Of a stretch of 64,000 nt of DNA, positions 3,363 to 48,175 are shown one piece after another (position 1 is the first letter of the stretch; the number at the start of each line of letters is the position of its first letter). The stretch lies in NCBI RefSeq assembly GCF_988242995.1, contig NZ_OZ547043.1. One strand, given 5' to 3'. A program made the position numbers and the translations under genes. The notes under the pieces are model-generated. The model was given only the letters and a program-made list of their open reading frames with translations. It did not search any database and was not told the DNA's origin.

Positions 3363-4364
3363 TCAGAGTTTAGCGAATTTTTCGAGGGTGCGAATAAGCT
3401 GCGTGACGAAGCCATATTCGTTATCATACCAGGCGACCGTTTTCACCAGCTGTAAATCGCCCACGGCGGTAATTTCGGTTTGCGTGGCATCAAACACCGA
3501 CCCGAAATGGCTGCCAATGATATCAGAAGAGACTATTTCTTCATCGGTATAACCAAATGACTCGTTATTGTTTGTCGCCTTTTTAAGCGCGTTGTTCACC
3601 TCTTCGGCAGTCACTTTTTTTTCGAGAATAGACACCAGTTCAGTCACCGAACCTGTTTTCACGGGTACGCGTTGCGCATGACCTTTCAGTTTGCCGCTCA
3701 GTTCCGGGATCACCAGACCAATGGCTTTTGCCGCACCTGTAGTGTGGGGAATGATATTTTCTGCCGCTGCACGTGAAGCGCGTAGATCTTTACCTCGCGG
3801 ACCATCCACCAGTGACTGAGTGCCGGTATAGGCATGAATGGTCGTCATCGTGCCGACTTCTATTCCGAAACTGTCGTGCAAGGCTTTGGCCATCGGTGCA
3901 AGACAGTTAGTGGTGCATGACGCCACGGAAACAATGGTGTCGTTGCCATCCAGAGTGTCGTCATTGACGTTATAAACGATAGTTTTCATTTCACCGGCAG
4001 GGGCGGAAATCAACACCTTCTTCGCACCAGCATCAAGATGCGCCTGCGATTTCTCGGCGGAGGTATAAAAGCCAGTACATTCGACAATAATTTCTGCCCC
4101 TTTCGCTTTCCACGGAATATTTTTAGCCTCTTTTTCGGCGTAAACCGCGATACTTTTCCCATCAACGATAAGTGAATCTTCCGTAAAATCAACGCTCCAG
4201 GGGAACGGTCCGTAGTTTGAATCATGTTTCAGCAGGTAGGCGAGAATTTTTGGGGAAGTGAGATCATTAATAGCGACAATGTCTATGTTGCTTTTGACTT
4301 CAAGTAATCGACGCAACACCAGTCGACCGATACGACCAAAACCGTTAATACCAACTTTACTCAT
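3363..4364 (-). CDS. gapC: glyceraldehyde-3-phosphate dehydrogenase GapC (intact reading frame)
   Basis: 333 aa uninterrupted ORF; N-terminal NAD-binding motif INGFGRIGR; active-site region SCTTNCLAP. Confidence 0.9.
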
Positions 4365-38509: not shown

Positions 38510-39109
38510 ATGATTAAGGTGTATGGCGTACCCGGATGGGGCTCTACAATCAGTGAGCTGATGCTAACACTGGCTGATATCCCTTATCAGTTCGTTGGTG
38601 TCAGTGGTTTTGACCACGAGGGAACTTCACGCGAGTTATTGAAAACCCTGAACCCGTTGTGTCAGGTTCCGACACTGGCGCTGGAAAATGACGAGATTAT
38701 GACGGAGACAGCGGCGATTGCATTGATGGTTCTCGATCGTCGCCCGGACCTTGCGCCACCGCTTGGGCGCGCCGAACGTCAGCAGTTTCAACGGCTATTG
38801 GTCTGGCTGGTTGCTAATGTCTATCCAACGTTCACTTTCGCCGATTACCCTGAGCTTTGGGCTCCTGACGCGCCTGAACAGTTAAAGAAGAATGTTATTG
38901 AATATCGTTTTATATCTGGTTGAATTCGCAGCTCACTGCTGAACCTTATGCGTTTGGCGATCAGCTACCCTTATCTCTGCGTTATGCGCATATGGGGACC
39001 GGGGCATGAATGGTTTCAAGATAATGCCGCGAATATCAGTGCGATTGCTGATGCTGTATGTCCGATACCAACGTTACAAGAAATACTAAAAAGGAATGCC
39101 ATTATTTAA
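38510..39109 (+). pseudogene. yncG: glutathione S-transferase-like gene yncG, disrupted by frameshifts
   Basis: N-terminal GST-like ORF ends prematurely at 38923 (137 aa); downstream sequence continues GST-like in two other frames (…YIWLNSQLTAEPYAFGDQL… then …YLCVMRIWGPGHEWFQDNAANISAIADAVC…), implying at least two indels. Confidence 0.7.
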
Positions 39110-39329: not shown

Positions 39330-40685
39330 AGGGCAGAGCGGTAGCGTATCAGGGAAAAAGCATGAAAGCCCGCGCCCCACAAGACTTTGGTGAATGATGA
39401 ATTTTTAAATCGCGACATTACTTTTATCGTAAAACCCATCATGTTGATCTTTTTTTTCGATCAATTTGACCATCTTATTTCAGTGTGATCTTATCCTTTC
39501 TTTTTGATGGATAGCACACCATGAACGGACTAAGCCTTTTGGATCAAATTTCAATTATTCACGATTATCGCCAGTCCTGGAAAACCAGTTACAGCCTGGC
39601 GGATATCCTTTTTCTGACGATCACCGCCATTATCGGTGGCGCTGAAGGATGGGAAGAAATTGCTGATTTTGGTGAGGAGCATCTGGAATGGTTACGCCTG
39701 TATGGTGATTTTGAAAATGGCACCCCCTCCCATCACACGATTGCCCGAGTGATGGGAATGATTTCAGCAAAACAATTACAGCCCCTTTTTATCCAGTAGA
39801 TGAAGGACTGTCACACGTTGTCTGAAGGCTCTGTTGTGGCGATTGATGGTAAGTCATTACGGGGTACTTACGATAAATCGAAACGTAATGCCGTGATCCA
39901 TAGGGTCAGTGCTTTTAGCGCAGAAAATCGTCTGGTTTTGGGGCAGGTGAAAACAGGGGCAAAATCGAATGAGATAACGGCGATCCCGGAACGGCTCCAG
40001 TTGCTGGAATTAAAAGGGTGTCTGGTCACGCTGGATGCAATGGGTTGCCAGCATATAATCGCCCGTGAAATTCTGAAAAAGAAAGCCGGTTACCTGCTGG
40101 CGCTGAAAGGAAATCAGGGAAAATTAGCGGAGGCGTTTGATAACGGGTACTCGCCGACAATGTGGCTGGGTGAGAGGTATGACAGTTACAGCACGCAGGA
40201 AAAAGGGCATGGACGGGAAGATACACGATGCTGCATTGTGAGCCATGATTTAACCGCTCTGGGTGATTTAGCTTATGAATGGTCAGAGCTGAGCACGATA
40301 GGAATAGTGCTGGCGAGCAGACAGGAAGGAGAAACAGCGGTGAAATCAGAGAAGTGTATTCTTCGCTACTACATAAGTTCGGTGACGCTTACGGCGAAAG
40401 AACTCCTGGAAGCAACACGAGCACACTGGTCGGTAGAAAATCAACTGCACTGGCGACTTGATATGGGGATGCGGGAAGATGAATGCCAGATTGTTCGTGG
40501 AGAAGCGGGAGAAAATCTGGCAGTTTGTCGACATATCGCGATGAATTTACTGACCGCAGAGAATAGCTTTAAAGCGGGTATTAAACGCAAGCAAAAGCGG
40601 GCAGGACGTAAGAATGAATACCTTTCTCTAATCCTTGCTGGCTGCGGGCCTTCATGATTTCGCCCTGCGGTTAGAGGTTAATTAT
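39330..40685 (+). mobile_element. H-repeat (ISAs1-family) element, copy 1 (ends approximate)
   Basis: ~100-bp conserved upstream block (ATGAAAGCCCGCGCCCCACAAG...CATCATGTTG) shared with the second copy at ~46100; transposase-like ORF; similar sequence just after both stop codons. Confidence 0.6.
39521..40657 (+). pseudogene. H-repeat-associated (ISAs1-family) transposase interrupted by in-frame amber codon
   Basis: 92-aa and 285-aa ORFs are in the same frame, separated only by TAG at 39797-39799; combined 378 codons, same length as the intact paralog at 46358..47494. Confidence 0.75.
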
Positions 40686-41078
40686 GCTCCTGGTATGCAT
40701 GGTAAATTGATTTTGTGTTTCTCATGGTATGCTGTTAATTATAAGAGATGATTGTTTTTAAGGTTGATTAATATGTAATTCATATTTGTCATGCGACATA
40801 AAGTAATCGATTTTTTTTGTTGTGGCTTTAATTGATGGTTCTAAGGTATGCAGTTTGAGAACGTTCAGTGAATGATGTATATACAATAATAAATAATATT
40901 TGCAATAAATTTGTGTGGGTGGTTATTTTTATATTTCATTGGTACGGGATTTTACGGTTAATTAGTGAAGAGGACTTCGCTAATTTATATAGATTATTCG
41001 GGGAAATCTTATTCACTGGTTATGAATCAGTATGGATTGCACTCAGAATAAAACCATAAATAATTTAAGGAATAAACC

Positions 41079-44000
41079 ATGAGCGGAAAACCGGCGGCGC
41101 GACAGGGCGATATGACCCGCAAGGGACTGGATATTGTGCAGGGTTCAGCGGGGGTGCTGATAGGTGCGCCGACGGGAGTGGCCTGCTCGGTGTGTCCCAA
41201 CAGCCCGGTGGAGGAGCAGAAGGGTAACCCGGTGAACCCGCTACTGGGTGCGAAGGTGCTGCCGGGCGAGACGGATCTTGCGCTGCCCGGCCCGTTGCCG
41301 TTTATTCTTTCCCGCGCCTACAGCAGCTACCGGACCAGGACACCCGCGCCGGTGGGGGTGTTTGGTCCCGGCTGGAAAGCGCCCTTCGATATCCGCTTAC
41401 AGGTTCATGAGCGGGAACTGATACTCAACGACAGTGGCGGCAGGAGCATTCACTTTGAGCCGCTGTTTCCCGGCGAGATAAGCTACAGCCGCAGCGAGTC
41501 GTTCTGGCTGGCAAGGGGCGGGGTGGCGGAGCAGCACAGTTCGCAGCCGCTAAGCGCGCTCTGGCAGGTGCTGCCGGAGAGTCTCCGCTTAAGCCCGCAT
41601 GTGTACCTGGCGACAAACAGCCTTCAGGGGCCGTGGTGGATACTCGGCTGGCCGGAGCGGGTACCGGAGGCGGACGAGGTGCTGCCGCCGGAGCCGCCCG
41701 CATACCGGGTGCTGACGGGCGTGGTGGACGGCTTCGGGCGGACGCTGGCCTTCCACCGGGCGGCAGAGGGGGAAGCGGCGGGCGCGGTGACGGGGGTGAC
41801 GGACGGCGCGGGCCGCCGTTTTCATCTGGCGCTGACCACACAGGCGCAGCGGGCGAAAGCCTTCCGTAAACAGCGCGAGTCTTCTTTATCTTCTCCGGCC
41901 AGTCCCCGTTCTGTTTCCTCTTCTCAGTTTTTCCCCGACACGCTGCCCACCGGTACAGAGTACGGTGCCGATAACGGTATCCGGCTGGAGGCGGTATGGC
42001 TGACACACGACCCGGCATACCCGGATGAACTGCCGACTGCGCCGCTGGCGCGCTACACGTACACGGCCAGCGGAGAACTGCGGGCGGTGTATGACCGCAG
42101 CGGTACGCAGGTGCGCGGGTTTACTTATGATGCGGAGCACGCCGGGCGGATGGTGGCGCACCATTATGCGGGGAGGCCGGAGAGCCGCTACCGGTATGAT
42201 GATACCGGTCGGGTGACGGAGCAGGTCAACCCGGAGGGGCTGGACTACCGCTTTGAGTACGGGCAGGACCGCGTGACCATCACGGACAGCCTGAACCGGC
42301 GGGAGGTGCTGTACACGGAGGGCGAGGGCGGCCTGAAGCGGGTGGTGAAGAAGGAGTATGGGGACGGGAGCATCACCCGCAGCGAGTATGATGAGGCGGG
42401 GAGGCTGAAGGCGCAGACGGATGCGGCGGGACGGCGGACGGAGTACCGGCTGCATATGGCGTCGGGAAAGCTGACTTCAGTGATACTGCCGGACGGCAGG
42501 ACGGTACGGTATGGTTACAACAACCAGTTGCAACTGACGTCAGTGACGTACCCGGACGGGCTGCGCCGCAGCCGGAAATATGACCGTCAGGGCAGGCTGG
42601 CGGAAGAGGTCTCGCGCAACGGTAACATTACGCGCTGGTTTTATGATTCTTCCCGCAGTGGCCTGCCCTGTGCGGTGGAAGACGGAACCGGGGTGAGGCG
42701 GAGAATAACGCGAAACCGGTACGGTCAGCTTCAGGCATTTACGGACTGTTCAGGGTACACGACGCGGTATGAATACGACCGGTACGGTCAGAGGACGGCG
42801 GTTCACCGGGAGGAAGGCATCAGCACTTACAGCAGTTATAACCCGCGTGGTCAACTGGTCAGTCAGAAGGATGCGCAGGGACGTGAAACCCGTTATGAGT
42901 ACAGCGCCGCAGGCGACCTCACCGCTATCATTGCCCCGAACGGCAGCCGGAGTGAGACACAGTATGATGCGTGGGGAAAGGCCGTCAGCACCACGCAGGG
43001 CGGACTGACGCGCAGCATGGAGTATGACGCCGCCGGGAGCATCACCGTGCTGACCAACGAGAACGGCAGCCAGTCCACGTTCCGGTATGACCCGGTGGAC
43101 AGGCTGACGGAGCAGCGCGGCTTTGACGGCAGGACACAGCGTTACCGGTACAGCGCCACAGGGCAGCTCATCCGCAGCGAGGATGAGGGGCAGGTCACGC
43201 AGTGGTACTACGATGACGCCGGGCGCATCACGCACCGGACGGTGAACGGCGACCCGGCGGAGCAGTGGCAGTATGACGACCACGGCTGGCTGACAGAAAT
43301 CAGCCACCTGAGCGAAGGCCACCGTGTGGCGGTCCACTACGGCTATGACGATAAAGGCCGCCTGACGGGCGAACGGCAGACGGTGGAGAACCAGGAGACG
43401 GGGGAGATGCTGTGGGAGCATGAGACGAGGCACGTCTACAGCGAACAGGGGCTGGCGACCCGTCAGGAGCCGGACGGTCTGCCGCCGGTGGAGTGGCTGA
43501 CGTATGGCAGCGGTTATCTTGCGGGGATGAAGCTGGGCGGAACGCCGCTGGTCGAGTACACGCGGGACCGGCTGCACCGTGAGACGGCCCGCAGCTTCGG
43601 CGGGGCGGGCAGTACAGCGGGGTACGAACAGGCCACGGCGTACACCCTCACAGGGCAGCTCCGGAGCAGGCACCTGAACCTTCCGCAGCTTGACCGTGAG
43701 TATACGTGGAACGATAACGGGCAACTGGTGCGCATCAGCGGCCCGCAGGAGAGCCGGAAGTACCGTTACAGCGACACGGGAAGACTGACGGGCGTTCACA
43801 CCACGGCGGCGAACCTGGATATCGATATCCCGTATGCGACGGACCCGGCAGGAAACCGGCTGCCGGACCCGGAACTGCACCCGGACAGCACCTTCACGGC
43901 GTGGCCGGATAACCGCATCACGGAAGATGCGCACTATGTCTACCGCTACGATGAATACGGCAGGCTGGCGGAGAAGACGGACCGTATCCCGGAAGGGGTG

Positions 44001-45290
44001 ATACGGATGCACGACGAGCGGACGCACCACTACCATTACGACAGCCAGCACCGCCTGGTGTTCTACACGCGGATACAGCACGGCGAGCCACAGGTGGAGA
44101 GCCGCTACCTCTATGACCCGCTGGGCCGCCGGACGGGGAAACGGGTGTGGCGGCGGGAGCGTGACCTGACGGGGTGGATGTCGCTGTCGCGTAAACCGGA
44201 GGAGACCTGGTACGGGTGGGACGGTGACAGGCTGACGACGGTACAGACCGGCACCACGCGTATCCAGACGGTATACCAGCCGGGGAGCTTCACGCCGCTC
44301 ATCAGAATCGAAACAGAGAATGGTGAACAGGCGAAGGCGCGGCACCGGAGTCTGGCGGAGGTGTTGCAGGAGGACACGGGGGTGACGCTACCGGCGGAGC
44401 TGTCGGTGATGCTGGGGAGGCTGGAGCGGGAACTGCGCGCGGGTGCGGTGAGTGCGGAGAGTGAGGCATGGCTTCAGCAGTGCGGGCTGACGGCGGAACA
44501 GATGAAAAACCAGATGGAGGCGGAATACATCCCGGAGAGGACACTTCATCTTTACCACTGCGACCACCGGGGGCTGCCGCAGGCGCTCATCAGCCCGGAA
44601 GGGGAAACGGCGTGGCAGGGGGAGTATGACGAGTGGGGAAACCTGCTGGGCGAAACCAGCGCGCAGCAACTGCAACAGCCGTACCGTCTGCCGGGGCAGC
44701 AGTATGATGAGGAGTCGGGGCTGTACTATAACCGCAACCGGTACTATGACCCGTTGCAGGGGCGGTATATCACCCAGGATCCCATTGGGCTAAGAGGTGC
44801 ATGGAACCTGTATCAGTATCCATTGAATCCAACTACTAAGATAGATCCGTTGGGTCTCTCCGGAGAAGATTCCATAGAGCAGTCAGGTCCATCTTGGTTG
44901 ATTGCTGACCCCATGGATAAATACAGACAACAGGCAGTGATGGGTTTAACAAAATTGTGGGATGATACCTTTAGTCAAGAGAAGACTAAATGTTTACCTA
45001 CGACACCTGAAAACATCAGGATGGTTGTGGCCAACAGTCCCTTGTTGACAGTACAACAAAAAGTCTCAGTACCCGTAGTAGCTCACTACGTACAAATGCT
45101 GGAAGATGGTAGTGGAGCACCACCGGTTGATATGGATGGGAATGTGATTGTTAATGGTAATCACAGGATGGTTGCGGGTCTGTTATGTGATAAACTTCCT
45201 CCTGAGCGGCCAGGTACGCGTCCATTATCGGCACCACTATATCCGTTTAGCCAAATTTTTCCGGAGTTAGATGATTGGGGGAATAGATGA
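41079..45290 (+). CDS. Rhs-family polymorphic toxin, full length (PAAR-like N-terminus, YD-repeat shell, DPxGL boundary, variable C-terminal toxin tip)
   Basis: 1403 aa; N-terminus [12 protein letters not shown]...GVACSVCPN; many YD repeats; conserved core end ...[33 protein letters not shown] (ends 44858); GC-rich core, AT-rich tip after 44858. Confidence 0.95.
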
Positions 45291-45772
45291 TAAGAATCGC
45301 GTTTTTAATAACCAATAAATTTCTTGATATAGATAGTACCACTCTTGCTGGATATGATTTTAGCGGGATGGATCTACATCGTGCCATCCTCAATGGTTAT
45401 TGTCTTGATGGGGCGAAATTTGAAAATTCCCATTTAAGAAATGTAATGATTCAACATACATCAACTAGAAATGCTGTCTTTCGCAATGCGGCTCTGATGA
45501 ACGCTATTCTTAATAACTCAGATTTCACTGGAAGTGACTTTAGTAATTCAAGGTCAATAGGTGCAAACTTTGAGGGTGCTATATTAACTAATTCAACCTT
45601 TTGCAATGCAGACGTTAAAGATTCAAATTTTTCTGGTGCTGACTTATGTGGCGCTAATTTATTATGTGATAGATATGGCGATATAAATATAACAGGTGCA
45701 TTATTCGATAAAAACACCTCATGGTTAGAAGGTTTTGATCCTATAGCTCATGGGGCTATATTAAAAATATGA
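45287..45772 (+). CDS. pentapeptide-repeat protein, putative cognate immunity protein of the Rhs C-terminal toxin
   Basis: 161 aa; start overlaps rhs stop (ATGA); consecutive A(D/N)(L/F)xx pentapeptides ([40 protein letters not shown]...); AT-rich like the toxin tip. Confidence 0.8.
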
Positions 45773-46064
45773 CAAGGATCATAACTCATTATTTTCTGTG
45801 TCAGTAACACTGATGTGGAAAGTAGACTTACTTGCAATAGCCACCGGGATCTGCTGTTGAAAGCCGATCCCAAACAACCCCGGTTGCTGTGGTAAAGAGT
45901 CATAGTAGCGAGCGCAGGGGGAGTGCTCAGATTATATGAGATACAGTGAAATGAATAAACCCGAACCTGTGTTGACGTGTCGTTAGTCCTAAGCGGCATC
46001 AGAACCGGAGGTTTCGTGATACCGCCGTGATAAATTTACGGGTGAATTCCGAATGCTACGTAAA

Positions 46065-47520
46065 GGGTGTCCGGCGTATAGCAGACATCAGGATAAAAGT
46101 ATGAAAGCCCACGCCCCACAAGGCTTTACCGGATGATGAGTTTTTAAACTACGACATTACTTTTACAGTAAAATCCATCATGTTGGTATTTTCTCTCGAA
46201 CAATTTGACGATCCACGGAAAGATCACGTAACGCTGCTTTTTTGTACTAGACAATTCGCATTTTATGTTTAACAATTGAGATATTCCTCATTACCTGAAG
46301 CTGTTTTTTATTGCGTATACATGATCAAATACTCCTTACATAATTAAGGAGAACAAAATGGAACTTAAAAAATTGATGGAACATATTTCTATTATCCCCG
46401 ATTACAGACAAGCCTGGAAAGTGGAACATAAATTTTCGGATATTCTACTGTTGACTATTTGTGCCGTTATTTCGGGTGCAGAAGGCTGGGAAGATATAGA
46501 GGATTTTGGGGAAACACATCTCGATTTTTTGAAGCAATATGGTGATTTTGATAATGGTATTCCTGTTCACGATACCATTGCCAGAGTTGTATCCTGTATC
46601 AGTCCTGCAAAATTTCACGAGTGCTTTATTAACTGGATGCGTGACTGCCATTCTTCAGATGATAAAGACGTCATCGCAATTGATGGAAAAACACTCCGGC
46701 ATTCTTATGACAAGAGTCGCCGCAAGGGAGCGATTCATGTCATTAGTGCGTTCTCAACAATGCACAGTCTGGTTATCGGACAGATCAGGACGGATGAGAA
46801 ATCCAATGAGATTACAGCTATTCCAGAACTTCTTAACATGCTGGATATTAAAGGAAAAATCATCACAACTGATGCGATGGGTTGCCAGAAAGATATTGCA
46901 GAGAAGATACAAAAACAGGGCGGTGATTATTTATTCGCTGTAAAAGGAAACCAGGGGCGGCTAAATAAAGCCTTCGAGGAAAAATTTCCGCTGAAAGAAT
47001 TAAATAATCCAGAGCATGACAGTTACGCAATTAGTGAAAAGAGTCACGGCAGAGAAGAAATCCGTCTTCACATTGTTTGCGATGTCCCTGATGAACTTAT
47101 TGATTTCACGTTTGAATGGAAAGGTCTGAAGAAATTATGCGTGGCAGTCTCCTTTCGGTCAATAATAGCAGAACAAAAGAAAGAGCCAGAAATGACGGTC
47201 AGATATTATATCAGTTCTGCTGATTTAACCGCAGAGAAGTTCGCCACAGCAATCCGAAACCACTGGCACGTGGAGAATAAGCTGCACTGGCGTCTGGACG
47301 TGGTAATGAATGAAGACGACTGCAAAATAAGAAGAGGAAATGCAGCAGAATTATTTTCAGGGATACGGCACATGGCTATTAATATTTTAACGAATGATAA
47401 GATATTTAAGGCAGGGTTAAGACGTAAGATGCGAAAAGCAGCCATGGACAGAAACTACCTGGCGTCAGTCCTTGCTGGGTGCGGGCTTTCGTAATCTTGC
47501 CCTGCGCCAAAGATTCCATA
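46065..47520 (+). mobile_element. H-repeat (ISAs1-family) element, copy 2 (ends approximate)
   Basis: conserved upstream block homologous to copy 1; intact transposase ORF. Confidence 0.6.
46358..47494 (+). CDS. ydcC: H-repeat-associated (ISAs1-family) transposase, intact (YdcC-like)
   Basis: 378 aa; [52 protein letters not shown]...; clearly related to but diverged from the copy at 39521..40657. Confidence 0.85.
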
Positions 47521-47539: not shown

Positions 47540-48175
47540 ATGAATAAAGGTAATAGATTACAACAGTTAGAAGATGCGTGTCGTGATATTATTAAAATTA
47601 ACATGTGGTATGAACTCCCCGATTATGTATTTTTTTCAATATCTGACACCATCGATGGGACGAGTGATGAATTTGCAATAAATGTGTATAAAAATATCGA
47701 TAAAAGTCTTCTTGAAATATTATTGCATCCATCTGTTTTACTGTCAGTTGTTGAGTCCTTACAAAGTAATACTATAGCTGAGTATATCGTGAAATTGTCT
47801 GGAATAGAGATGAATTATGACGACTTGCTAATATCGGATGTTAAGTCATGTCTTTTTATCAACTATGGATTCAATAACAGTGAATCGGTTGCGCTATTTA
47901 ATAAGATTTGCCGCGAATTAAAAGACATTGTAAAATCATCAAGAGTACATATAGATCATGAGAAAGATATTTTTGATGGCCTTAATCAAATCTTGGCTTT
48001 TTCCGATAATAATAAACGTGAGTATTTTTTATATATAAAGGCATATTGGCTCAGTTTATACTTTTGTGAAATTTCACAGAACGTGAGAGAAAGAGATAAG
48101 TTGTCATTTTATTATAATGAATTTTCTGTCCGATTTCCTAATGTTGTCCTATATCCGTCATGCTACAAATTGTAA
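47540..48175 (+). CDS. hypothetical protein (211 aa), AT-rich, no TM segments
   Basis: ORF track; AAGG 7 nt upstream of ATG; very low GC; no recognisable family. Confidence 0.5.
   Translation: MNKGNRLQQLEDACRDIIKINMWYELPDYVFFSISDTIDGTSDEFAINVYKNIDKSLLEILLHPSVLLSVVESLQSNTIAEYIVKLSGIEMNYDDLLISDVKSCLFINYGFNNSESVALFNKICRELKDIVKSSRVHIDHEKDIFDGLNQILAFSDNNKREYFLYIKAYWLSLYFCEISQNVRERDKLSFYYNEFSVRFPNVVLYPSCYKL

Follow-up and report, generated by a model that had tools for sequence, protein, structure and literature searches.

A pentapeptide-repeat protein as the predicted immunity partner of a ParB/sulfiredoxin-fold Rhs toxin tip at the Escherichia coli rhsE locus

Introduction

Toxin domains with a ParB fold are already known as a class, described as Tox-ParB in 2012 and as ToxB in 2026. 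Here we analyze a putative relative in a 64,000-nt stretch of an Escherichia coli chromosome that covers the rhsE locus (contig NZ_OZ547043.1 of RefSeq assembly GCF_988242995.1; the whole stretch is referred to as the window). An intact Rhs gene in the window ends in a variable C-terminal tip and is followed by a 161-aa open reading frame (ORF161) that encodes a pentapeptide-repeat protein (PRP). Rhs toxin-immunity cassettes are textbook knowledge. To our knowledge, most bacterial PRPs have no known function, and the few that are understood protect topoisomerases. Judging from sequence comparisons, ORF161 is very probably an immunity protein of a previously undescribed type.

ToxB is the ParB-CTPase-fold tip of CdiA in Erwinia, Providencia, Klebsiella, and Proteus (Kaljevic et al., bioRxiv 10.64898/2026.05.05.722872, May 2026). 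It was found via Pfam PF02195 and reported on CdiA only, in 52 species that are mostly Enterobacterales. ToxB binds ATP (Kd ~87 µM) and hydrolyzes it slowly; its GxxR motif is G105-N106-H107-R108, and D75 contacts the adenine base, whereas in canonical ParB the equivalent residue is a serine that lies 27 residues before the motif glycine and reads cytosine. The R108A variant lost both ATP binding and hydrolysis, and alanine mutants of the pocket such as G105A and Y81A were non-toxic. Intoxication led to nucleoid compaction, with neither SOS induction nor cleavage of DNA. In a 2.4 Å co-crystal the dimeric immunity protein iToxB occludes the ToxB active site, and its Arg, His, and Trp residues reach into the nucleotide site (Kaljevic et al., 2026).

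Tox-ParB was described by Zhang, de Souza, Anantharaman, Iyer, and Aravind as a ParB-fold tip of Rhs, filamentous-haemagglutinin (FHA), MafB, and HINT toxins with a DGHHR motif, a predicted nuclease activity, and immunity families Imm20, Imm27, and Imm-SuFu (Zhang et al., 2012; PMC3482391). The word "pentapeptide" is absent from the 300,000 characters of that article that were searched. In a third system, Tse6-Tsi6a of Stenotrophomonas rhizophila, a PAAR-Rhs effector is paired with an immunity protein that is reported, from structure predictions, to resemble a pentapeptide-repeat antitoxin (10.64898/2026.07.13.738213, July 2026). In the same preprint Tse6 is likened to a predicted ADP-ribosyltransferase and then called a nuclease. 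Carriers of the Rhs, HINT, TPS, and Ig-like types are reported there for its orthologs, which come from Actinomycetes, Planctomycetes, and Proteobacteria.

Pairing of the toxin domain with pentapeptide-repeat proteins

A first description of the window, made from the letters and their translations (the sequence-only reading), had delimited the Rhs gene, ORF161, and their ATGA overlap, and had assigned ~143 aa to the C-terminal tip. Coordinates, lengths, and overlap were found exactly as claimed, and the tip length was confirmed by the end of the core match (see below). The features of the cassette are as follows.

41079..45290, + strand: Rhs ORF, 1403 aa, intact
41079..44858, + strand: Rhs core, residues 1-1260 (NCBIfam RHS_core, Pfam)
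44859..45290, + strand: variable C-terminal tip, Rhs residues 1261-1403, plus stop codon, marked by a drop in GC content
44991..45287, + strand: predicted ParB/sulfiredoxin-fold toxin domain, tip residues 45-143
45156..45167, + strand: GNHR motif, tip G100-N101-H102-R103, a predicted phosphate-binding GxxR P-motif
45277-45282, + strand: GGGGGA, a Shine-Dalgarno-like run 4 nt before the ORF161 ATG
45287..45290, + strand: ATGA overlap of the Rhs stop and the ORF161 start, by sequence reading
45287..45772, + strand: ORF161 (PRP), 161 aa, predicted cognate immunity gene
45377..45439, + strand: conserved basic patch of ORF161, codons of H31-R32 (45377-45382) and R51 (45437-45439)

PRP genes were found to follow the toxin domain far beyond E. 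coli. A Logan contig encodes a tip with 65% identity, then a PRP 66% identical to ORF161; on a 2.6-kb Pseudomonas aeruginosa replicon the corresponding values are 36% for the tip and 34% for the PRP that follows. The PRP lies downstream of the tip domain in loci L003 and L002. A locus scan restricted to one genome per species gave 63 loci, from Neisseria, Aggregatibacter, Pseudomonas, Achromobacter, Budvicia, Snodgrassella, Sinorhizobium, Bacteroidota, Bacillota, Sorangium, Pirellula, Actinomycetota, Verrucomicrobia, and others. By phmmer, 50 of 60 downstream ORFs were homologs of ORF161 (E-values from 1e-5 to 1e-33). Rescoring of all frames with family hidden Markov models (HMMs) placed a PRP at 56 of 65 loci; two of the 65 end too early to judge, which gives 56/63 evaluable loci. 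The start of the downstream PRP usually overlaps the toxin stop codon or lies within a few bases of it.

The pairing spans Proteobacteria, Bacillota, Bacteroidota, Myxococcota, and Planctomycetota, and it holds beside a CdiA-type carrier (the DUF637 protein of P. cichorii, L020) as well as in Bacillota (L012, L045). Toxin and PRP sequences have also diverged together (Mantel r = 0.76), with none of 2000 permutations giving a correlation as high. We concluded that the toxin/immunity pairing of the tip and ORF161, which the sequence-only reading had proposed from their arrangement in one genome, is strongly supported at the sequence level by the presence of a PRP at 56/63 loci across phyla and carriers and by the co-divergence. 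The ATGA overlap in E. coli may be read as translational coupling of the two genes.

At 7 of the 63 evaluable loci another gene stands downstream of the toxin, and in four of these seven its product is HAD-like. Differing downstream partners are usual for polymorphic toxins. One HAD-like type is a 154-aa protein (L054, 4345-4806; L062, 4344-4805); the L062 copy matches HAD_SAK_2 (PF18143, 1.7e-26), a phosphatase domain of RNA-repair proteins ("Swiss Army Knife" HAD), and the L054 protein is its close homolog. The other type, a 118-aa protein with a DVDDT motif (L008, 1173-1526; L031, 348-701), is unrelated to the HAD_SAK_2 type. The C-terminus of the toxin differs with the partner: PRP-paired toxins typically end in ...D..DWGN, and those paired with the 118-aa HAD-like protein in IQP or VVP. 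That the partner type tracks the C-terminal segment of the toxin suggests that this segment belongs to the interface. The presence of a phosphatase partner could mean that the toxin yields a phosphorylated product.

HAD-type genes were also seen in L028, L037, L044, and L047, where they lie on the minus strand at 0.5-1.4 kb upstream of the match to the toxin. In giant sulfur bacteria, the 118-aa type is located close to cassettes of toxin and PRP. Short stand-alone or frameshifted toxin copies occur in L028 (Candidatus Thiomargarita nelsonii, 1524-2298 and 3989-4177) and in L044 and L047 (Candidatus Parabeggiatoa); several such copies and PRP genes are found per contig in giant sulfur bacteria, like orphan-cassette arrays. 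The P. aeruginosa replicon of L002 (pHPA0008-4, NZ_CP137521.1, 2630 bp) consists essentially of an orphan CdiA-CT-like toxin and a PRP gene, the toxin having a VENN-like ATQNNY junction and a DGNHRY motif. The toxin reading frame ends prematurely at ...AEKILG, whereas the tblastn match runs on to 1862, which suggests a frameshift; the replicon is perhaps an artefact of assembly or a cassette that was excised.

Carrier, fold, and family of the toxin tip

The NCBIfam RHS_core equivalog matched Rhs residues 1-1260 on model positions 1-1261 with 2510 bits (cut-off 2000). The match ends at residue 1260, and the tip is therefore residues 1261-1403 (143 aa). NCBIfam also placed Rhs_assc_core at residues 1183-1260 and gave YD_repeat_2x at 2.1e-48; the Pfam matches were DUF6531 (residues 49-126), over 10 copies of RHS_repeat, and the core-end domain RHS (1157-1191). 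The core end reads ...QDPIGL...IDPLGL, a PxxxxDPxGL-type boundary, at which the GC content breaks and after which the variable tip begins. The GC content falls from 0.63-0.66 in the Rhs core to ~0.45 in the tip and 0.35 in ORF161. These results bear out an intact Rhs protein with a YD-repeat shell and a DPxGL boundary, and the low GC content shared by tip and downstream gene, much as the sequence-only reading had them. The PAAR-like N-terminus claimed there is reduced to the literal tetrapeptide PAAR at residues 5-8, the sole PAAR trace; the Pfam PAAR_motif gave no match in Rhs residues 1-1200, even at E<=10.

Within the tip, the first ~44 residues form a weakly conserved linker, for which AlphaFold2 (AF2) gave a predicted local distance difference test score (pLDDT) of 55-64 at residues 1-40. 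Across tip residues 45-140 the pLDDT was >93, and the predicted structure has the alpha+beta fold of ParB/sulfiredoxin (Srx). The tip model had 73 matches in AFDB50 at E<=1e-3, many of them labelled ParB/Sulfiredoxin in UniProt, and a predicted helix (tip residues 101-109) begins at the GNHR motif. We consider this fold prediction solid. The tip is thus modeled as a ParB/Srx-fold nucleotide-binding toxin domain in which the GNHR motif would bind phosphate.

Sequence searches of the tip against Pfam, NCBIfam, and PDB sequences gave no family and no match. When 1.84 billion representative proteins were searched exhaustively with HMMER, 329 cluster representatives proved related to the tip (E<=1e-3); among the matches listed, the domain lies at most ~10 residues from the C-terminal end of proteins of ~100-2400 aa. 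A word-indexed homolog search with the tip returned two fragments only, probably because Rhs proteins cluster by their cores and the cluster representatives bear other tips. The 57 longer members carry RHS/YD shells, PT-HINT, DUF637/filamentous haemagglutinin (CdiA-type), TcdB/SpvB, DUF6443, or Ig-like parts, and the public names of these proteins refer to the carrier part only.

The domain consensus reads ...T..NI...Q..VS.P.V.RYV..L..G...PPIKVDG.VIVDGNHRY.AG...PGT.P.S...D..DWGN. In the family alignment, for which the E. coli tip was the reference sequence, Q66, G100, and H102 are invariant and T49, S70, G84, I97, R103, and A106 nearly so. The E. coli domain has an isoelectric point (pI) of 5.55 and a net charge of -2; the family median pI is 8.25. 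From the GNHR tetrad, together with S70 located 30 residues before G100, we assign the tip to the nucleotide-dependent toxins of the ToxB/Tox-ParB class.

ORF161 and its conserved basic patch

ORF161 is labelled "pentapeptide repeat-containing protein" in RefSeq (WP_000618048.1). Its Pfam matches are all of the pentapeptide type (PF00805 Pentapeptide, 1.8e-8 and 1.2e-5; PF13599 Pentapeptide_4, 1.8e-6; PF13576, 3.9e-5), together with the pentapeptide-like SV2 luminal domain; Imm20, Imm27, Imm-SuFu, and the other Imm families of Pfam gave no match. Among PRPs with solved structures in the PDB it matched QnrB1 (1.9e-11), MfpA (2.7e-6), and also AlbG. AF2 predicted a regular beta-helix (pLDDT 96-99) with a short strand every five residues over ~125 residues, that is, a right-handed quadrilateral beta-helix in the model. 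The protein is made up of ~25 pentapeptide units. A beta-hairpin caps its N-terminus, and the cap at its C-terminus is conserved and specific to this family of PRPs (T144-x-W146-(P)...F150-x-P152...G156). The description of ORF161 as an array of pentapeptide repeats is upheld by all of these comparisons. The HMM searches proposed in the sequence-only reading for both proteins were thus informative for ORF161, which fell into pentapeptide families, and returned no Pfam or NCBIfam match for the tip.

Curated models of Qnr and MfpA scored ORF161 far below their cut-offs (MfpA, 37.2 bits against 360; Qnr, 32.3 against 240; QnrB, 33.5 against 460), and membership in either group was rejected. ORF161 has a pI of 5.16 and a net charge of -5, close to the medians of the PRP family (pI 4.8, net charge -6). 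We plotted conservation among 37 PRPs along the pentapeptide register. All invariant residues that face outward are basic, namely H31 (100%), R32 (95%), and R51 (100%); R51 follows H31/R32 at a distance of one 20-residue coil and shares their face of the helix. No conserved acidic stripe and no invariant exposed acidic position was found in the 37 PRPs. From this conservation we predict that the H31/R32/R51 patch contacts the toxin or its nucleotide.

Mode of immunity and alternative explanations

By analogy with iToxB, we favor direct binding of ORF161 to the toxin with occlusion of its active site, to which we give a probability of about 60%. This preference draws on the basic patch, the low Qnr/MfpA scores, the alternative HAD partners, the mode of action of iToxB, and the way in which the partner type tracks the C-terminal segment of the toxin. 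A basic patch on one face of the PRP fits an iToxB-like contact with the nucleotide site better than it fits DNA mimicry. The proposed sequence of events would be as follows. A polymorphic toxin-immunity module would have recombined onto the conserved Rhs core at the rhsE locus. As in other Rhs effectors, the YD shell would enclose the tip, and autoproteolysis near the DPxGL boundary would free it for delivery into the cytoplasm of a neighboring cell, presumably via a type VI secretion system (T6SS) encoded elsewhere. There the tip may bind a nucleoside triphosphate, and hydrolysis or phosphoryl transfer may poison a conserved cytoplasmic process, as suggested by analogy with ToxB. ORF161, putatively coupled in translation to the toxin gene, would be the cognate immunity protein, a cytoplasmic beta-helix that binds the toxin directly. 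The H31/R32/R51 patch and the C-terminal cap would most likely lie over the nucleotide-binding cleft and the C-terminal segment of the toxin and so block catalysis. Toxicity, nucleotide use, tip release, T6SS delivery, direct binding, and the interface are all proposed here by analogy with the characterized systems.

Several observations weigh against this reading. Both domains were well folded when toxin and PRP were modeled by AF2 as one Gly-Ser-linked chain, with 31 natural pairs as input, but the predicted template modeling score (pTM) was 0.59 and the fused model had no confident interface. Co-divergence of toxin and PRP is also expected from co-inheritance of adjacent genes alone, and the case for PRP immunity as a whole is built from sequences. 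As for the fold, Pfam ParBc (PF02195) matched neither the tip nor any of 44 family members, and the family sequence profile had no ParB match among PDB sequences. The E. coli tip has N99 where most members have D (NGNHR, not DGNHR), although N recurs elsewhere in the family. Lastly, there are no T6SS or vgrG genes within +-20 kb in one genome that matches the window.

Among the alternatives, substrate mimicry holds up best, although we regard it as unlikely. The toxin would act on nucleic acid, as a nuclease or as a nucleoside triphosphate-dependent kinase or modifier of ends, and the PRP would imitate its substrate. A nuclease was indeed predicted for the DGHHR Tox-ParB (Zhang et al., 2012), and the mildly basic toxin domains of the family (median pI 8.25) would suit acidic PRPs; the E. 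coli domain itself is acidic, however, and the conserved exposed residues of the PRPs are basic, not phosphate-like. ToxB showed neither DNA binding nor detectable DNA cleavage, but turned over ATP to ADP slowly in vitro (Kaljevic et al., 2026); such slow turnover could be that of a kinase deprived of its substrate. The HAD_SAK_2 partners (E = 1.7e-26) fit a toxin that makes a phosphorylated nucleic-acid product, but the association with HAD-like proteins concerns divergent subfamilies and small numbers. A more specific and quite speculative form of the idea would make the ParB/Srx tips nucleoside triphosphate-dependent phosphotransferases acting on a nucleic acid or nucleotide, neutralized either by a PRP decoy that plugs the cleft or by HAD phosphatases of the RNA-repair type.

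The sequence-only reading had argued from PRPs such as Qnr, McbG, and MfpA that the toxin targets DNA or a DNA-binding enzyme and that immunity works by DNA mimicry. ORF161 would then shield gyrase, topoisomerase IV, or another DNA-handling enzyme without touching the toxin. It does belong to the PRPs and resembles QnrB1, MfpA, and AlbG in a generic way, and its family is mildly acidic (median pI 4.8, net charge -6); yet it scores 32-37 bits where the Qnr and MfpA cut-offs are 240-360, and the 37 PRPs have basic invariant exposed residues in place of a conserved acidic stripe. As far as is known, immunity proteins of polymorphic toxins, iToxB among them, are direct binders, which also weighs against protection of a target. 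A single PRP subfamily with its own N- and C-terminal caps is found in hosts from Bacillota to Planctomycetota, a different gene (HAD-like in four cases) takes its place at 7/63 evaluable loci, and the toxin domain of E. coli has an acidic pI of 5.55. ToxB compacts the nucleoid and causes segregation defects with no DNA damage, which leaves room for an ATP-dependent DNA-organizing target; it neither binds nor cuts DNA, however, and is neutralized by occlusion of its active site (Kaljevic et al., 2026). Low Qnr/MfpA scores, the basic patch, the HAD partners, and the ToxB mode together speak against the step from a PRP partner to a gyrase, topoisomerase, or DNA target, and we now consider that proposal improbable.

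It is very unlikely that the E. coli cassette is an inert relic, parked between ISAs1 elements, unlinked to secretion, and no longer expressed or toxic. ISAs1 copies do flank it on both sides, a group II intron fragment lies 3' of the module, no T6SS genes were found within 20 kb in the matching genome, the motif carries the D99N change, and rhsE is a pseudogene in K-12. Against this, both ORFs are intact, the Rhs core is complete and scores over the equivalog cut-off, and all invariant and near-invariant residues (T49, Q66, S70, G84, I97, G100, H102, R103, A106) are kept. The tip and ORF161 stretch is present at >=99% identity in 143 of 5426 complete E. coli genomes (2.6%).

A role of ORF161 as a secretion accessory or chaperone, like the T6SS spike-assembly PRPs (TagAB, TvpB, DUF2169-PRP fusions; PMC13373197, PMC11883445, PMC3942780), is hardly credible and was rejected on gene position and non-T6SS contexts: those documented PRPs adjoin vgrG, DUF2169, or DUF3540 genes and not the 3' side of a toxin tip, no T6SS genes lie within 20 kb in the matching genome, and the PRP also follows tips on PT-HINT and Gram-positive carriers and stands beside stand-alone ~100-aa toxin ORFs with no T6SS context, while its pairing on a CdiA-type carrier and in Bacillota excludes a T6SS-specific role of the TagAB/TvpB kind.

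Genomic surroundings of the cassette

The gene order around the cassette is yncE, ansP, yncG, disrupted ISAs1, Rhs, ORF161, ISAs1, yddH, nhoA, yddE, narV, and onward. The flanking features are listed below.

39521-40657: disrupted upstream ISAs1 copy, in which an internal stop leaves ORFs of 92 aa and 285 aa
45773..46213, strand not assigned: 3' spacer of ~440 nt that accompanies the tip and PRP module
45840-45948, + strand: group II intron fragment within the spacer, Rfam RF01999 (group-II-D1D4-2)
46358..47494, + strand: intact ISAs1 (H-repeat) transposase flanking the module, 378 aa (ORFs and RefSeq annotation of matching genomes)

The spacer was found at full length in 144 E. coli genomes, in 143 of them at >=99% identity; the tip and PRP are likewise present in 143. 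The RF01999 match scored 48 bits (gathering score 36; E = 2e-7), and no intron-encoded ORF follows the fragment. The ISAs1 elements around the Rhs gene may be agents of tip-cassette exchange.

Between the ISAs1 transposase and yddH lies a 211-aa ORF (47540-48175, + strand, GC content ~0.31) with no NCBIfam match, which may be an orphan immunity gene or a cargo gene. In two matching genomes that were inspected, this position is taken by pptA and by genes for a GGDEF protein and a sulfatase, so the strain of the window differs from them here. Directly 5' of the GC-rich Rhs start, a 430-nt segment (40650-41078) with a GC content of ~0.31 holds a 63-aa ORF (40868-41059) and may serve the Rhs gene as promoter or regulatory region; promoter and terminator scans gave chance-level matches only. 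The yncG gene (38510-38923), a glutathione S-transferase homolog, is truncated or frameshifted, likewise in the RefSeq annotation of matching genomes.

Significance

A full-text literature search found no paper in which a PRP is paired with a ParB-fold toxin; most subscription journals were outside its coverage, and a prior description is possible. Within that coverage, PRPs appear to be undescribed as a cognate immunity family of the ParB-fold toxin class. The novelty claimed in the sequence-only reading holds in part: no demonstrated DNA-mimic immunity for an Rhs toxin was found in the literature, but PRP-like Rhs immunity was proposed in July 2026 (10.64898/2026.07.13.738213).

If the pairing is true, a subfamily of ~160-aa PRPs serves as cognate immunity of a widespread polymorphic toxin, a new role for this fold. 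The ParB-fold toxin class, which gained its first experimental case, a rare CdiA toxin, in 2026, would be widened to several hundred cluster representatives. The basic patch of the PRPs, the Ser-for-Asp change in the toxin, and the HAD partners offer handles on the nucleotide and the action of these toxins. Should the phosphotransferase and decoy idea prove true, the PRP would be the first case of immunity to a protein toxin by nucleic-acid mimicry and would point to the target of ToxB-like toxins.

Comparison with known systems

Tse6-Tsi6a could belong to the same family as the tip and ORF161, a comparison made by description only. The carriers and taxa of Tse6 resemble those of the tip family, whereas ParB and sulfiredoxin are unmentioned in the preprint (10.64898/2026.07.13.738213). 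None of its taxa (Stenotrophomonas, Clavibacter, Gimesia, Sedimenticola, Mycobacterium) was among the 63 loci scanned, and no link of the tip family to Tse6 was found via cluster-member accessions.

ORF161 shares with Qnr, MfpA, McbG, and AlbG the predicted right-handed quadrilateral beta-helix, the A(D/N)LXX repeats, and a mildly acidic character, and also a putative protective role, those proteins being encoded next to a toxic agent (McbG, AlbG) or acting against one. It differs from them in being shorter (~6 coils), in having its own caps and basic conserved exposed residues, and in being paired with a delivered protein toxin and not with a small-molecule gyrase poison. A conserved and strongly electronegative, DNA-like surface, as expected of that group, was not seen for ORF161 (net charge -5, pI 5.16) and its family.

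The tip family is close to Tox-ParB in its consensus V-D-G-N-H-R-Y, with DGHHR in some members, and in its Rhs, HINT, and FHA carriers. The partner here is a PRP (56/63) or a HAD-like protein (4) and not Imm20, Imm27, or Imm-SuFu, the subfamilies being compared by description.

ToxB was likewise compared by its published description; neither E. amylovora nor any other ToxB species had turned up when one genome per species was scanned. ToxB and the tip are alike in being polymorphic toxin domains at the C-terminus of their carriers, with a ParB/Srx fold (predicted for the tip), lacking a DNA-binding domain of the helix-turn-helix type, and with a small immunity gene (predicted for the tip) after them. 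The GNHR motif is identical, and the position of the base contact lies 30 residues upstream in each (D75/G105 in ToxB, S70/G100 in the tip). PF02195 matches ToxB and none of the 44 tip-family members; the E. coli carrier is Rhs and not CdiA with a VENN motif, although the P. aeruginosa homolog has the VENN-like ATQNNY; and the carriers of the tip family, which occur across many phyla, are of the Rhs, HINT, CdiA, and TcdB types. On the immunity side, the word "pentapeptide" occurs 0 times in the ToxB preprint (Kaljevic et al., 2026). The residue at the base-contact position is Ser in the tip, as in CTP-binding ParB, and Asp in ToxB, so the preferred nucleotide may differ from that of ToxB. By these comparisons the tip falls into the ToxB/Tox-ParB class, perhaps with another nucleotide preference.

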